Source: a virus. Taken from it: a stretch of 64,000 nucleotides of DNA. Positions within the stretch are counted from its first letter, which is position 1. Every line of letters starts with the position of its first letter. This document shows positions 57,293 to 63,525 of this stretch, piece by piece. The stretch spans positions 74,672-138,671 of IMG/VR virus record IMGVR_UViG_3300044797_000318. One strand, 5' to 3'. A program made the translations under genes and the position numbers. The notes below the pieces were generated by a model. It made no database searches, had not been told where the DNA came from, and saw nothing but the letters and a program-made list of their open reading frames with translations.

Positions 57293-57859
57293 TTAGATAG
57301 TCAATTCCCCAAAATTGACCAGAGAGACAACTTTGTATTGGTTGCCCAACCAAGGGTCTTTATTGGCACGACGATCTACTACTGCCAAAACGCCTTTGAC
57401 ATCAAACTGGGCTTTTCGTAAAGTTTCAGCTGCCTTGAAAGCAGATTGTCCAGTGGTTAGGACATCTTCTAATATAACCACGTGTTGCAGCCAGGTGTGC
57501 TGCGCTCCCTCAATCAAGCTTTTGGTCCCGTGTTCTTTGGCTTTGTCTCGAACATAAACCACATTGATACCAAGAGGATGCTCCATAGCTACGATAGAGA
57601 CTAAATGACATCCACCTAATACCACTCCCGCTACCGCTTCCACCATCCCAAACTCTTGCACCATCTTCTCACAGAGAAGTTTAGCTAAAAGCTTACAGGA
57701 CATTCTGCTCATAGCAGTCTTTTTGACATCCACATAGACATTGGATGTCTGCTCAGAAGAGAGAGTGAATTCTTCGCCCACTCTAACACTATAAAGATTG
57801 AGCCAATCAATTAGCTGTTCGCGTTCAGTCCTGTTGCTCATCGTCCTCTTCTTTATCAT
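57293..57859 (-). CDS. Orotate phosphoribosyltransferase-like type I PRTase
   Basis: FTLSS...S..YVD, KEHGT...IEG, VVILEDVLTTGQS, VVDR. Confidence 0.88.
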   Translation of the reverse strand: MIKKRTMSNRTEREQLIDWLNLYSVRVGEEFTLSSEQTSNVYVDVKKTAMSRMSCKLLAKLLCEKMVQEFGMVEAVAGVVLGGCHLVSIVAMEHPLGINVVYVRDKAKEHGTKSLIEGAQHTWLQHVVILEDVLTTGQSAFKAAETLRKAQFDVKGVLAVVDRRANKDPWLGNQYKVVSLVNFGELTI

Positions 57860-58133
57860 GATCTAATCGACCCAAAGTCGTTCTAATGGTATTGTCGCAC
57901 ATAAACTCACCATAGCGGGCAGGATCATCCTCTTCTTTGCTTTCATCTTCTGGCCCGTGATAGTGAAAACTAACGGCAGTAATATCGCCCTTTTCTTCCC
58001 TTTCACGATATTCCATCCATTGCCAATAATCCTGTTCGCCAGCTTCACATAACCACACGGCAAAATGATGAGCCGCCTCTTCATTTGCGAAAATAATCTT
58101 GATCGTTGTCTCTTTGTCTTTATTCTTTTTCAT
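57825..58133 (-). CDS. Hypothetical acidic protein
   Basis: Coupled to the ARH gene (ATGA). Confidence 0.6.
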   Translation of the reverse strand: MKKNKDKETTIKIIFANEEAAHHFAVWLCEAGEQDYWQWMEYREREEKGDITAVSFHYHGPEDESKEEDDPARYGEFMCDNTIRTTLGRLDHDKEEDDEQQD

Positions 58134-59080
58134 GATGACCTCATCAAAAAACTACCATTCGACCTATTGTAAAGTTGGCTATCCAAAGTCATTAGCTTAC
58201 TACTATCTTCCACTTGGCTAACCCAATATGGAAGTATGTTTTGCACACCGCTTTTAGCACCAAATAGAGCCCCAACAATGCTGGCGGTGGTATCAGTGTC
58301 ACCACCTGCTTTGATAGCGGCCAACACTGCTTCTCGGTAGTTATCAAATCGCAGGAAACAATATAAAGTCGCCGGAACAGTCTCTCTAACATCGGCTTTG
58401 GTGCCGAGAGCTCGTAAAGCCATTTCGGAGGAAATCTTGGGATTTCCCAACAAAGCATCCAGACTATGAAGTGTAGTCTTGACTTTACTATCGGGCAAAT
58501 GAGGCACTATTTTTTCTATCAGATTATCGGTATCACCGTTAGTAGCATAGGCTGCCGCTAAGGCGATAGCAATAGATCCCGCAATGGCCTCGTCAGAAGC
58601 GTGAGTGATTTGAGCATCCACACGACAAGCCTCTATCAGAGTTTTGAGATCATGACGGAGATAGATGCCGAAAGGAGCGGCCCTCATCGCAGTGCCGTTG
58701 CCCCATGATCCAGCCATTCCCGACTCGGAATAATGCTTACCTTGAATGAGGTTAGCAATGGCCAAGAAGGTAGTGGTGCCATAACCACGAATAGTATTGG
58801 AAGTAAATAATTCCACATAGCGTTTGGCCAAATCTACTGGGTCAAAGCCATTGTTGTCGATCAATGAACCCGCTACTGCCAAGCTCATCATCGTATCATC
58901 GCTATACTGCCCTGGCAATAATTTGTGATGCTCGCTGCCTAAAAAGCTTTCCTGATCCCAAGCTAATAGCAGTGGGTTGCTGGCAGGTTTGGACTCGAAA
59001 GGAACACCAAGGGCATCGCCTATCGCCCCACCTAAAAGTGTATTAGTCATTTCAGTATTTCTCCATTCCTGCGGGAACAT
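58130..59080 (-). CDS. ADP-ribosylglycohydrolase (DraG/ARH family)
   Basis: GAIGDALG, YSDDT, GNGTAMR, ITH, GGDTDT; probable start MTNTLL at 59050. Confidence 0.95.
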   Translation of the reverse strand: MFPQEWRNTEMTNTLLGGAIGDALGVPFESKPASNPLLLAWDQESFLGSEHHKLLPGQYSDDTMMSLAVAGSLIDNNGFDPVDLAKRYVELFTSNTIRGYGTTTFLAIANLIQGKHYSESGMAGSWGNGTAMRAAPFGIYLRHDLKTLIEACRVDAQITHASDEAIAGSIAIALAAAYATNGDTDNLIEKIVPHLPDSKVKTTLHSLDALLGNPKISSEMALRALGTKADVRETVPATLYCFLRFDNYREAVLAAIKAGGDTDTTASIVGALFGAKSGVQNILPYWVSQVEDSSKLMTLDSQLYNRSNGSFLMRSS

Positions 59081-59501
59081 ATGATAATTCTAGTTGAATT
59101 ACTTGTTTATATAAATCGGGATTTTTATTTTTCAGACTGCTATGAAGTTTCTGAATCCACGCCTCATAAGAGGGATATTTGCGAGGATTGGGCTTCCAAG
59201 TTTCTTCCACGCCCTCATCGCTAAGAATGGCATTCGTCATTTTACCTAATTCGTTTCGGAACACTACTCCCACATAATCCATCCACATTCCATGAGGATG
59301 TTTGACACCTAATTTTCTGGGAGAAACGTGATTGAAATCTAATCCATCCCAATTTCCTGGGTATTCTACTATCCACCAATTATTTTGGGTGGAAATAGAT
59401 AACTTTCCGCCAAATCTCTTCTGATTGATTTTCTGAAATAAAAGTGGCAAGTCATACGATTTGATCCATTTTTTGGTGGTCAAATAAGAAATATTACTCA
59501 T
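59052..59501 (-). CDS. Hypothetical protein
   Basis: Coupled ORF. Confidence 0.6.
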   Translation of the reverse strand: MSNISYLTTKKWIKSYDLPLLFQKINQKRFGGKLSISTQNNWWIVEYPGNWDGLDFNHVSPRKLGVKHPHGMWMDYVGVVFRNELGKMTNAILSDEGVEETWKPNPRKYPSYEAWIQKLHSSLKNKNPDLYKQVIQLELSYVPAGMEKY

Positions 59502-59820
59502 CAGTTATAATCTCCACTGCTATTGTTATTTCTCCGACATCCGTGAGGTAAATCTTCTCAAAATCCATTCCATTGCACATATAGCGTCTTTTCTCTACAA
59601 AAAACTGAGCCGCCTCCGACAAAGAAGAGAAACATCTTTCATACTCAAAAAGAACATTCTCATCCTCTTCTTCCCAATCCACCGCCCAGTTAGTGGGAGG
59701 GCTACCCTCATCCATTGGACGAATTTGCAGAGTGCCGCTTACCCCTACATCAAAACCAGCTGGGTGGGATAGGAAGGTAATGAGGTGAGCAATCTCATCT
59801 TCGATTGACATTAGGGTCAT
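59494..59820 (-). CDS. Hypothetical acidic protein
   Basis: Coupled ORF. Confidence 0.6.
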   Translation of the reverse strand: MTLMSIEDEIAHLITFLSHPAGFDVGVSGTLQIRPMDEGSPPTNWAVDWEEEDENVLFEYERCFSSLSEAAQFFVEKRRYMCNGMDFEKIYLTDVGEITIAVEIITDE

Positions 59821-60383
59821 GGCAAATATCCCTCCAACAACATAGCAATCACAAAAGCGTGGCCCATTTTTCTATCGGGAGCGTTGATGACTTCCTCATA
59901 AGATAAATTGCACATCTTATGATTATAGCCATCGAAATCCCATAAGTAAAGGTCTTGCTCCTCTTCGTGCATCTTTTTCAATTTCTCAAAGGCAGAAGTT
60001 TTTTTGACCGCCTCGGAATACAAAGGAATATAGATTTTCTTGCGTGCCTCTATATAAGATAATTGTTGACCATCCCAATAAGAAAACTTAGGAAAAACAC
60101 CTTTCCCCATCGGATAACGATGAGCTTTGATATCATTCCAGCCATCCTGCGCCCACTTGAAATATCGTTCTCCTACCGAGCCATCCTCCTCCAAATAGTA
60201 TTCATACACTTTGGAAAATTGCCAAGCGTTTTCTACATTCTTAGAACGATATGTGCCATATAAATCTACCGGGCCACAAAAGAAGGGGCTCAGCCCTCTG
60301 CCCCAAGTATTAGATCTAGAAGTAGTATTGATTTCCACTGCCCCTTCGGGAGTTTTATGACCAGGGCCAATAACGTGGATCAT
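59817..60383 (-). CDS. DUF6939-like protein (possibly NADAR-related)
   Basis: TSR...LSPF, VENAWQFSKV, L.YIEARKKIYIPLY, L.DFD, GH. Confidence 0.65.
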   Translation of the reverse strand: MIHVIGPGHKTPEGAVEINTTSRSNTWGRGLSPFFCGPVDLYGTYRSKNVENAWQFSKVYEYYLEEDGSVGERYFKWAQDGWNDIKAHRYPMGKGVFPKFSYWDGQQLSYIEARKKIYIPLYSEAVKKTSAFEKLKKMHEEEQDLYLWDFDGYNHKMCNLSYEEVINAPDRKMGHAFVIAMLLEGYLP

Positions 60384-60388
60384 TTGAT

Positions 60389-60712
60389 TTAGGACATTCC
60401 TTTGTCATCATCTTGCCAAGGTGCCCCTACTGTATTTTCCCATTGCACAGACGACCCAGGAGTTGTGCCTTTGGATGACTTATTCTTAGCTTGTAGTCTT
60501 ACTGCCTTGGGAATATTTTTCGCTGTCAGATTTTTTATCTTATGGCAGATGGGGCACTCTACATCATAGTTTTCATATGAGGGATCTCTGCAATCCCCCG
60601 GATAATATTTGTATCTGACATCAGCTGCCGCAGCTTCTAATTCGGAATCGCATTCATCACAGGTAAATCTACAAGACCAAAGAGAAGTATCTGCTTGTTT
60701 GATAATTTTCAT
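60389..60712 (-). CDS. Zn-ribbon protein
   Basis: CDEC...CPIC. Confidence 0.65.
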   Translation of the reverse strand: MKIIKQADTSLWSCRFTCDECDSELEAAAADVRYKYYPGDCRDPSYENYDVECPICHKIKNLTAKNIPKAVRLQAKNKSSKGTTPGSSVQWENTVGAPWQDDDKGMS

Positions 60713-62120: not shown

Positions 62121-62160
62121 ATACTCTCCGTATGTTATTCATCTTCTCTCTCCGAGAAGA
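62121..62160 (-). promoter_or_regulatory. Twin hairpin leader element before NAMPT
   Basis: UCUUCUC-GGAGA-GAGAAGA and AUAC-GGAGA-GUAU, the second ending 1 nt before the AUG. Confidence 0.65.
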
Positions 62161-62162
62161 GT

Positions 62163-63179
62163 TTATTTTGTAAAAGGTGATCCAACAAAAAAATCTGCTA
62201 TATGGTAATGATCCTCAAAGAATTCCTCTTCCCTATTATAGAATTCATCTATTGGCATCCACCACGCCTTATCAGCATCATCCGAACCCTTGACTTTTGG
62301 CAAAGCACCCATTCCTAAGTCTAGAAGAAAAGCGGTAGTAATAGTTCTTCCACGTTCCGATCTTTCCACTAAATCAAAAGTATGTTCATCTTTGATATGT
62401 TTATCAAGTTCATCTTTACTTAGTGCAATAGCCGTCTCTTCTTTTAGTTCTCTGATCACCCCGGTGCGAATACGCTCCTTAGCTTCAAGAAAACCACCAG
62501 GAAGAGCAATCAGCCCACCACCATAAGCTTTACCTCTACGGACACAAAGTACATGTCCCGACTTTATAACGACTGCATCAACGGTGTGAAAAATAGGCTC
62601 GAAGGGAGCGCCCTCCCAAGCTCGCTTAGTTTCTCTAAGTGCATCAAAATAAGATTTGATCGCCTTGAATTTAGGGGTTTTCTTGAATTCCTCTAAATAT
62701 TCAACGGTCTTGGCAGGAACGAATGTCTTATAACGGATATCATGGGTGAAATACAAATAACGAATTTCAGCGGCCTCCGGCATAGTTTTGATGTTTGGAA
62801 GCACAAACTTTTCCCATTGTGGGAAGGCTTTCATATATTCCGAATGTTCGTGCCCCACTATAATAATGGACTCCGAATCGTCAGTAAGTTCGCTGACTTT
62901 GCTCGATACATCTGCTAACCACAAATGGTTCTTATAAAGATAATCTCGCACAAAAACAAACTTGATACAAGTATTTTCTTCGGGCGTCAATGCTGCACGG
63001 ATCATCGCCTCACGCTCTTCACCAGACCAAGGTTTCTTGGGGGAAGGGGATCTTTTATAACTACCCACTACGATAATAACTGTTTCGGCCTGATTGATAG
63101 CCTCTTGTACGAGCTGATATTGAGTTGAATAAAATGGTTGAAAATTACCTACAACAATAGCAAATTTATGATTTTTCAT
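62163..63179 (-). CDS. NadM-Nudix fusion (NMNAT-like domain with degenerate HxGH + ADP-ribose pyrophosphatase)
   Basis: GNFQPFYSTQ (cf. GRFQPFHxGH), VGS, PWS..ER; Nudix box GGF.E..E......RELKEET, DDA, FEDH; ATG at 63179. Confidence 0.9.
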   Translation of the reverse strand: MKNHKFAIVVGNFQPFYSTQYQLVQEAINQAETVIIVVGSYKRSPSPKKPWSGEEREAMIRAALTPEENTCIKFVFVRDYLYKNHLWLADVSSKVSELTDDSESIIIVGHEHSEYMKAFPQWEKFVLPNIKTMPEAAEIRYLYFTHDIRYKTFVPAKTVEYLEEFKKTPKFKAIKSYFDALRETKRAWEGAPFEPIFHTVDAVVIKSGHVLCVRRGKAYGGGLIALPGGFLEAKERIRTGVIRELKEETAIALSKDELDKHIKDEHTFDLVERSERGRTITTAFLLDLGMGALPKVKGSDDADKAWWMPIDEFYNREEEFFEDHYHIADFFVGSPFTK

Positions 63180-63180
63180 T

Positions 63181-63223
63181 TTCACTCTCCGTGAAGTTAG
63201 TAACTAGAACCCTCTCTGGGTTC
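63181..63223 (-). promoter_or_regulatory. Twin hairpin leader element before NadM-Nudix
   Basis: GAACCC-AGAGA-GGGUUC and UUCAC-GGAGA-GUGAA, the second ending 1 nt before the AUG. Confidence 0.65.
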
Positions 63224-63248
63224 ACAAGTAAATATATCAATATGCCCA

Positions 63249-63465: not shown

Positions 63466-63502
63466 AAATAAAAAACGGAATGAAGTTGCCCTCATTCCGT
63501 TT
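63466..63502 (-). terminator. Rho-independent terminator
   Basis: AAACGGAAUGAG-GGCAAC-UUCAUUCCGUUU followed by a U-run. Confidence 0.8.
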
Positions 63503-63525
63503 CGCATTCTAGGGTTGATAAATAA

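Follow-up and report, generated by a model that had tools for sequence, protein, structure and literature searches.

A conserved two-hairpin mRNA leader of phage NAD-salvage genes, a putative switch at the ribosome-binding site

Introduction

Here we describe a small RNA module that stands at the start of two neighbouring nicotinamide adenine dinucleotide (NAD) salvage genes of a phage, nadM-Nudix and NAMPT (nadV). Both genes lie on the minus strand of a 64,000-nucleotide stretch (hereafter the window, in whose positions coordinates are given), which is the last 64 kb of the 138,671-bp linear viral record IMGVR_UViG_3300044797_000318. Each of these NAD-salvage (NARP2-type) genes is preceded by two hairpins, which together make up its own copy of a conserved and probably cis-regulatory RNA module. 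This is almost certainly a genuine, conserved, NAD-gene-specific RNA structure and, judged from its sequence and placement, it very probably regulates translation; the element is thus probably an undescribed switch that sets the amounts of NAD-salvage enzymes.

NARP2 consists of NAMPT and a NadM-type nicotinamide mononucleotide (NMN) adenylyltransferase, with which phages rebuild NAD+ and escape NAD+-depleting defence; it overproduces NAD+ and drains phosphoribosyl pyrophosphate (PRPP), and the available passages of the preprint mention no regulation, nor do the words riboswitch, hairpin or UTR occur in them (10.1101/2024.02.11.579819). Our literature search returned the NARP papers and two NAD+ riboswitch classes, and no description of this leader. 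On the leaders, Rfam gave no meaningful match at E<=10, and no family reached its gathering score in 20 loci. By these checks, the leader stands for an RNA motif family not described before and of a familiar type, namely an mRNA leader acting at the ribosome-binding site.

Results

Two hairpins precede each NAD-salvage gene

The original prediction had described four hairpins with different stems and a shared C-(A/G)GAGA-G apex, two before each gene, with loops 19-22 nt apart and the ribosome-binding site in the second loop of each pair. All four are present as described, on the minus strand (Table 1). In both leaders the second hairpin (H2) carries the Shine-Dalgarno (SD) sequence GGAG in its loop and ends 1 nt short of the AUG, and its loop is separated from that of the first hairpin (H1) by 22 nt before nadM and 19 nt before NAMPT. 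Before nadM, H1 and H2 are joined by an 11-nt linker, the SD occupies 63190-63187, the 3' arm of H2 forms the spacer to the start codon, and a single A (63180) precedes the AUG at 63179-63177. The first possible start in the list of open reading frames (ORFs) is GTG 63185; starting at ATG 63179 gives the 338-aa protein, with 100% identity to a protein-database entry. H1 of NAMPT begins 2 nt past the nadM stop codon (TAA, 62165-62163), its linker is 8 nt long, and again one A (62120) separates H2 from the AUG (62119-62117). The AUAC/GUAU hairpin of the NAMPT H2 is also found before NAMPT in many relatives.

Table 1. Positions of the leader hairpins, model matches and neighbouring features in the window
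Feature	Position	Strand	Remarks
H1, nadM leader	63223-63207	-	GAACCC/AGAGA/GGGUUC; 6-bp stem, C-G closing; folds at -7.9 kcal/mol; stem covaries in relatives
H2, nadM leader	63195-63181	-	UUCAC/GGAGA/GUGAA; 5-bp stem; folds at -3.8 kcal/mol; outer pairs covary
H1, NAMPT leader	62160-62142	-	UCUUCUC/GGAGA/GAGAAGA; 7-bp stem; folds at -8.4 kcal/mol
H2, NAMPT leader	62133-62121	-	AUAC/GGAGA/GUAU; 4-bp stem, SD in loop; folds at -0.7 kcal/mol
Covariance-model R1 match, nadM leader through start codon	63177..63239	-	49.9 bits, E 2.3e-11
Covariance-model R1 match, NAMPT leader through start codon	62116..62175	-	48.8 bits, E 4.3e-11
Promoter-like GGGCATA-N2-GATATAT	63232..63247	-	8 nt upstream of nadM H1; strand-biased GATATAT motif
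Intrinsic-terminator-like hairpin with T run	63472..63503	-	closes upstream gene; terminator scan
nadM-Nudix (NMN adenylyltransferase / ADP-ribose pyrophosphatase), 338 aa	62163..63179	-	Pfam NUDIX + CTP_transf_like; homologues named bifunctional NMN adenylyltransferase/nudix hydrolase by sources
NAMPT (nadV), 463 aa	60728..62119	-	Pfam NAPRTase + NAMPT_N
DUF6939 protein	59817-60383	-	downstream of NAMPT
ADP-ribosylglycohydrolase	58130-59080	-	downstream of NAMPT
Orotate-phosphoribosyltransferase-like protein, 188 aa	57293-57859	-	TIGR00336, 110.2 bits against a cut-off of 106.8

By itself the heptamer CRGAGAG shows no enrichment in the window (12 copies against 9.17 expected). Over both strands of the whole record there are eight hairpins with a Watson-Crick stem of 4 bp or more and an RGAGA pentaloop, and those closed by a C-G pair are the four reported here and no others, against a mean of 0.375 in 200 dinucleotide shuffles of the genome, none of which reached four. 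A covariance model built from the element (R1) was run over the window with filters off; the two leaders alone fell below E=1 and the next match scored 8.4 bits. Over the whole 138.7-kb record, R1 likewise finds only the two NAD leaders. None of the other ~200 called genes of this phage uses the module, so the earlier remark that the motif was not noticed at other starts holds for the available record. The only other hairpin before a start codon with an SD in its pentaloop lies outside the window, at 61836-61824 of the record (UAAU/GGAGA/AUUA, followed by AU and AUG); it is closed by A-U, lacks an H1 and stands before a 51-aa ORF.

Two other readings of these hairpins were rejected. H1 of the NAMPT leader is not an intrinsic terminator: after it the minus strand reads UGAAUAAC, with no U run, and on the mRNA strand no T run follows either leader hairpin. 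The plus-strand complement of 62142-62160 was flagged as terminator-like, since the end of nadM is A-rich; no plus-strand gene ends there, and we take the call for a coincidence. Nor does a DNA palindrome or operator account for the pattern seen in relatives (below), because the arms vary and covary around a fixed centre and G-U pairs occur.

The stems covary and the apices are conserved

Homologues of NadM-Nudix are numerous in metagenomes at 50-72% identity. Through an alignment of 60 of them we gathered 80 viral loci and 80 loci from bacterial or archaeal genome contigs, the latter with a full-length NadM in L082-L117 only. Twin hairpins stand before nadM and the next NAD gene in dozens of loci, with H1 stems that differ wholly from locus to locus. 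The structure was assessed on 56 leaders picked by loop sequence alone (three rows are slightly out of register). Paired cells amounted to 81.9%, against 62.2% after shuffling, and the covariation score was 0.523 against 0.160, a value reached in none of 500 shuffles, with slid controls at or below 0.165. Changes on both sides were seen in 10 of 13 pairs, and G-U pairs are present, a sign that the mRNA strand is the relevant one. The check proposed with the original prediction, an alignment of nadV and nadM leaders from other phages, thus bears out the stems.

Two features are invariant in all 56 leaders, namely the C-G closing pair of H1 and ACGGAGAGU of H2. The H1 loop is AGNGA in 46 of these close leaders and the H2 loop GGAGA in 55, with G, not U, at position 1. 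The H1 loops of the 108 leaders that have both hairpins include AGAGA (35), AGUGA (20) and AUAGA (18). Across lineages the architecture is constant (medians of 7 bp for the H1 stem, 9 nt for the gap and 5 bp for the H2 stem, with H2 ending ~1 nt from the start codon, and a short, A/C-rich linker), while the loops change: AGNGA, GGAGA, AUAGA, GUUGA, GGAGU or, in enterobacterial phages, GUAGUA-like loops occur in H1 (NNNGA more widely), and GGAGA, GGAGU, GGAGC or GGAUU in H2, with AGAGA in Ralstonia phage RSL1. Alternative pairings and pseudoknots, of the H1 loop with the linker, the H2 arm or the coding start, and of an upstream GUGAA with UUCAC, were judged by eye and are not conserved across lineages.

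Among the contigs of four DNA runs, one diverged contig covers the NAMPT leader; its H1 loop has changed from GGAGA to AGAGA and one C-G pair to U-G. A 1015-nt 'joint' in that contig comparison had one side of 23 letters and was taken as cross-matching of the two leaders. In a G+C-richer clade, nine nadM leaders (L019, L023, L024, L033, L038, L039, L042, L043 and L051) have an outer 5-bp helix around H1 with a 3-nt 5' bulge (CAU, GAU or CGU), and an additional covarying hairpin upstream, e.g. AUGGC-loop-GCCAU. The window nadM leader may form a 3-bp version of this outer helix.

The leader is nearly exclusive to nadM and NAMPT

Over the 80 viral loci R1 gave 104 matches at E<=1; 103 are on the strand of the gene, and almost all coincide with the start of nadM or NAMPT. 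A loose descriptor was also applied: a first stem of 4 bp or more capped by an NNNGA pentaloop, a gap of up to 25 nt, a second stem of 3 bp or more capped by a GGAGN pentaloop, and a start codon no further than 9 nt away. It found 109 units over both strands of 116 loci (663 kb), compared with 4.0 in shuffled loci. NadM follows 55 of these units and NAMPT 44, with three more before NAMPT at another start codon; the other units stand before a PnuC (one), a 213-aa protein (two copies), a 108-aa protein (one) and short or spurious ORFs (four). By a strict descriptor, both hairpins are present in 44/70 unique viral nadM leaders and 36/62 viral NAMPT leaders, and on genome contigs in 14/36 nadM and 14/22 NAMPT leaders. 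H2 alone is found in a further 11 and 8 of the viral nadM and NAMPT leaders, and in 9 and 1 of those on genome contigs.

The strongest test of specificity is provided by gene-blind scans of IMG/VR. With the pattern of this phage group, 49 unique matches were obtained. Both stems form in 39, and every one of these precedes nadM (23) or NAMPT (16, two of them truncated); the ten unfolded matches look like chance. A second scan used the less specific pattern of the distant group; among the matches listed, 75 were unique, in 80 loci, and 40 fold, 17 before NadM, 15 before NAMPT and 8 before other ORFs. Among these last eight, again of the matches listed, two look like genuine leaders of unknown genes and the others like chance matches. 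The hairpins are therefore neither unconserved nor common before unrelated genes, two of the outcomes that had been named as refuting the idea. The original prediction of an RNA operator on the NAD genes stands in so far as covariation, strand-specific matches, G-U pairs and near-exclusive association with nadM and NAMPT define an operator-like unit; the dimeric protein that it supposed to be the binder is retained below as a tentative proposal.

Distribution among phages and bacteria

Leaders from 12 cultured phages were inspected visually. The complete pair of hairpins is found in front of nadM and NAMPT alike in Synechococcus phage B23, Roseobacter phage DSS3P8, Rhodobacter phage RcXuper, Pectobacterium phage CBB, Klebsiella phage K64-1 and Ralstonia phage RSL1, and in front of nadM in Aeromonas phage Aeh1; neighbouring genes in the cultured phages lack the motif by the same inspection. 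Because MAFFT left the distant variants out of register, a second model (R2) was made from an ungapped alignment of 13 distant leaders, and it scores B23, DSS3P8 and RcXuper at 25-42 bits. Variants also occur on contigs labelled cyanobacteria, Comamonadaceae, alphaproteobacteria and Acidobacteriota, some of which may be prophage or phage DNA in assemblies. R1 and R2 score the known bacterial examples at ~15 bits, which is too weak for scans of whole bacterial genomes.

On three cyanobacterial-labelled contigs (L082, L083 and L092), a perfect inverted repeat, ATTATGGT-N7-ACCATAAT, lies beside a TTGACA box just upstream of H1. We presume that this could be a DNA operator of the NrtR type, in which case these genes may be under both transcriptional and RNA-level control.

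Other genes behind the leader

A few further genes follow the leader in relatives. In L077 it precedes pnuC (PF04973), and in two unrelated contigs (L079:846-1211; L276:632-1003, minus) a family of 122-124 aa whose members share 40% identity. A phrog_1843 protein follows it in L059 (1759-2397) and L060, and probably in L308 (1-204, minus), where 29 N-terminal residues match (E 1e-6 for one comparison); a phrog_12218 protein follows it in L078 (1921-2244). Neither Pfam nor the protein atlas assigned a function to the three unknown families, which are likely candidates for NAD-related phage functions. Homing-endonuclease genes lie directly behind leader copies or half-copies beside nadM or NAMPT in four loci (L016:1681-2442; L022:1707-2432; L168, ORF from 1244; L212). 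Two are HNH by PHROGs and two are 261-aa ORFs with LAGLIDADG-like motifs by eye, which suggests endonuclease insertion between leader and gene.

Genomic and transcriptional context

CheckV estimates the record as 32% complete. Relatives with similar genes have contigs that reach 481 kb, so the record probably represents part of a very large phage. Soil, peat and lake water are the labels of the DNA runs in which the stretch occurs. Megablast against the phage collection gave no close DNA relatives, blastn matched only a 152-nt stretch of NAMPT in two Synechococcus phages, a single-protein scan of viral contigs gave no match, and a metagenome scan recovered the same phage alone, at 99.9% identity.

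On the minus strand the gene order is the terminator-like hairpin, a 51-aa ORF (63404-63249), nadM-Nudix and NAMPT. The terminator-like hairpin closes the upstream gene; therefore the small ORF, nadM and NAMPT are taken to form a new transcription unit. The 51-aa product is hydrophobic, without a family match in Pfam or PHROGs, and its ORF sits between the terminator and the promoter-like element of nadM. This element contains GATATAT. Of this motif the coding strand has 26 copies, 15 of them no more than 80 nt from a called start, and the opposite strand has 12; it is probably this phage's own promoter type. Its usual distance to the ATG is 14-21 nt, which would mean near-leaderless mRNAs, and before nadM 53 nt; the extra length at nadM would be the two-hairpin module. 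The form GGCATA-N2-4-GATATAT is kept before nadM in the closest relatives. If GATATAT is a -10-type element, the transcript would begin at or just before H1, which would place H1 at the 5' end of the mRNA. An alternative promoter is a sigma-70-like match at 63278-63251.

Downstream of NAMPT there is an apparent NAD/ADP-ribose/PRPP island (57293-60712, minus strand). The two-hairpin leader is not found on its genes for the DUF6939 protein, the ADP-ribosylglycohydrolase or the orotate-phosphoribosyltransferase-like protein. The relative that holds L015 has a similar phosphoribosyltransferase (PRT) gene ~3 kb past NAMPT.

Discussion

How the module may work

Since the SD is the loop of H2 and the spacer is its arm, the module would act on translation initiation. 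H2 is weak in both leaders, yet its pairing is kept by compensating changes, from which we infer that something holds it shut; a conserved weak H2 fits stabilisation by a bound factor. As H1 offers a similar conserved loop at a short, fixed distance, the same agent would be expected on both loops. Left free, H2 would melt readily and the ribosome start; an effector gripping both loops would freeze H2, cover the SD and repress, and its release would let the ribosome melt H2. Because each cistron has its own copy of the leader, the two enzymes would be set in parallel, the synthesis of NadM-Nudix and of NAMPT being lowered separately, and in relatives that of pnuC and a few unknown genes likewise. 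Given that the NAMPT H1 begins so close behind the nadM stop, terminating ribosomes must open it, and this may couple the two genes.

As to the effector, we lean tentatively, on sequence comparison, towards a nucleotide-loaded dimeric enzyme of the same cassette, either NAMPT or NadM-Nudix, acting on an operator in the style of PyrR. PyrR is a phosphoribosyltransferase whose UMP (uridine monophosphate)-bound dimer binds hairpins containing ARUCCAGAGAGGYU, as stated in the accessible part of PMC7430163. The core of this site, CCAGAGAGG, is found in 21 of the 56 close leaders, including the window nadM H1 with its CC-AGAGA-GG apex. A protein effector is preferred because the loops drift by lineage while the architecture stays, as co-evolution with a protein predicts. 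Within 2.5 kb no other candidate regulator is co-conserved, and only NadM-Nudix and NAMPT are always beside the motif. A phage-encoded PyrR-like protein was considered and rejected, since NCBIfam identifies the product of the PRT gene at 57293-57859 as an orotate phosphoribosyltransferase; type-I PRT (PF00156) is present in 2/5 related viral records and in 0/5 complete cultured phage genomes with the motif.

Several points weigh against an effector from the cassette. To our knowledge, neither NAMPT nor NadM-Nudix is known as an RNA binder, and by Pfam neither has an extra domain. A spread over many phyla together with one gene class is also a hallmark of riboswitches, and the leader may be carried along by a mobile cassette of genes. 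Because the loci were gathered by way of NadM, the sample consists of genomes with these proteins, and even in this sample the strict descriptor finds no hairpin in 15/70 viral nadM and 18/62 viral NAMPT leaders (on genome contigs, 13/36 and 7/22). Among the cultured phages, RB43, IME-SM1, phiM7 and phi-ST2 have at most an H2-like hairpin and Caulobacter phage CcrSC has neither by eye.

Alternative explanations

The leaders could instead dispense with a protein. The two pentaloops might form a pocket for NAD+, NMN, nicotinamide, ADP-ribose or PRPP, for example with the adenine and nicotinamide rings each stacked in one loop, so that binding locks H2 and its SD; this would make the motif the third and by far most widespread class of RNA that senses the NAD pathway. 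We consider a riboswitch unlikely, if the most serious of the alternatives. It would explain why the same motif stands before nadM, NAMPT and pnuC in phages of unrelated hosts and on bacterial contigs of several phyla, why each cistron has its own copy, why no regulator gene is co-conserved in the flanks and how an H2 too weak alone could close; moreover, room for further NAD+ classes is expected because the known ones are few and narrow, with 101 representatives of the nadA class in Acidobacteria and ~130 of the pnuC class in Streptococcus (PMC7749635, the part available). Its information content, however, is very low. Only the terminal GA of the H1 loop and the GGAG of H2 are fixed across lineages, and GGAG is needed as the SD anyway; there is no universally conserved junction, internal loop or pseudoknot, and loops that change by lineage are unexpected in a pocket for one universal ligand. 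The known classes resemble our leaders in preceding NAD genes, in the tandem similar stem-loops of NAD+-I, the second of which holds the ribosome-binding site (as far as the source text available goes), and in the pnuC target shared with NAD+-II, but they occur in different taxa, and our leaders have neither a match to them in Rfam nor the ACANCCCC bulge or the P1/P1a/pseudoknot architecture. More doubtful still is a module that senses nothing, in which H1 insulates or protects the mRNA, H2 presents the SD, and both are inherited with a mobile nadM-nadV cassette. Gene pair and leaders do occur together in very different phages and bacteria, H1 of nadM lies at the inferred 5' end of the transcript, and covariation speaks for structure rather than regulation. 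A mere stabiliser would nevertheless have no need of the fixed C-G closing pair and ACGGAGAGU, and the module is repeated inside the operon, away from any 5' end, occurs before pnuC and three other gene families, and is passed over by the remaining genes of this phage.

Host proteins are less plausible again. That PyrR of the host binds the AGAGA-type hairpins of this phage group, which would tie PRPP-consuming NAD salvage to the pyrimidine pool, is very improbable. The apex match, a proposed nucleotide-loaded dimer of PRT fold, repetition within one operon and targets in nucleotide metabolism are all reminiscent of the PyrR binding loop (RF00515), as described in the available sections of PMC7430163, and the PyrR model NF003545 is above its cut-off in 2/5 motif-bearing bacterial genomes and near it in 1/5. 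The full UCCAGAGAGG, i.e. the PyrR terminal loop with the top of its stem, is present in 1/56 close leaders and its core in 21/56. Yet RF00515 has no match on the leaders even at E<=10, a weak 15.9-bit match in the record lying elsewhere; and the purine-rich internal bulge that PyrR requires is not seen, the folds being plain hairpins without antiterminator or terminator. The mycobacterial PyrR site is said to overlap the ribosome-binding site; in our leaders an SD-bearing second hairpin is obligatory and the genes serve NAD salvage rather than pyrimidine synthesis. In addition, the PyrR-bearing genomes carry other H1 loops (GUUGA or GGAGA), and host PyrR is not general because two alphaproteobacterial motif carriers lack it, with weak PRT-like matches only. 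A host CsrA/RsmA dimer bridging two GGA loops, the other regulator named in the original prediction, is disfavoured and hardly credible. Three of the four loops here contain GGA, there are two sites per leader in short hairpins, one of them over the SD, and a CsrA dimer is suited to sites 19-22 nt apart. Against this, CsrA (PF02599) is absent from the phage record and from all five motif-bearing bacterial genomes, in a search positive for the controls E. coli, B. subtilis and T. maritima; GGA is missing from most H1 loops, including AGAGA of the window nadM leader and those of enterobacterial phages, whose hosts do have CsrA; and phages that infect Synechococcus, Ruegeria and Rhodobacter carry the motif.

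Relation to other RNA elements

An operator read by a cassette enzyme, which we tentatively prefer, has relatives in kind if not in sequence. Classical translational operators (thrS, MS2 replicase, T4 genes 43 and 32) are hairpins at the SD and AUG bound by the gene's own product, and in thrS two similar hairpins are bound by a dimeric enzyme; they have no sequence relation to these leaders. Guanidine-II (mini-ykkC), which a riboswitch here would resemble, also consists of two plain hairpins with variable stems, conserved C-G-closed loops, a variable linker and an SD at the second hairpin, and its loops pair on ligand binding. Our loops, in contrast, are purine pentaloops and not ACGR tetraloops, so that Watson-Crick kissing is not possible. 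The ANTAR dual-hairpin target shares tandem small hairpins at a variable distance, A1 and G4 in the loop and a protein dimer (PMC3369931, in the part available), and H1 here has both A1 and G4. However, our loops are of 5 nt rather than 6 (with A1/G4 in H1 only), the stems are longer, and H2 abuts the start codon without competing with a terminator. An ANTAR domain (PF03861) is found in 4/5 motif-bearing bacterial genomes; neither the cyanobacterial genome nor the phage record has one. Finally, compared by sequence only, the H1 loop AGNGA fits the first half of the interlocking AGNNA ... UGNNA of the double T-loop module and GGAGA of H2 fits the second half except at position 1 (PMC3664808, as far as available), but in our leaders both are pentaloops closed by a hairpin stem, not bulges or wider loops, and the distant AUAGA with GGAGU break the pattern.

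Implications

The riboswitch field asks why NAD+, unlike other coenzymes, has few and narrow RNA sensors, a question raised in the available portion of PMC7749635, and the motif makes it testable with 60-nt RNAs and with harmless phage-host pairs in culture. If the effector is a protein, the leaders would provide a new example of twin hairpins read by a metabolic enzyme or regulator. If, on the other hand, the riboswitch explanation is true, a mostly phage-carried element would let a virus read the NAD+ level of its host: when an NAD+-depleting defence fires, the ligand would fall, both leaders would open and the NARP2 counter-defence enzymes would be made, and the unknown genes behind the leader would be new members of the phage NAD toolkit. 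In any case, at least three phage gene families of unknown function are flagged by the motif as likely NAD-related. For NARP2, a conserved leader dedicated to each of its genes would supply the control element that is missing and would give a handle on what the phage senses in the arms race with its host.

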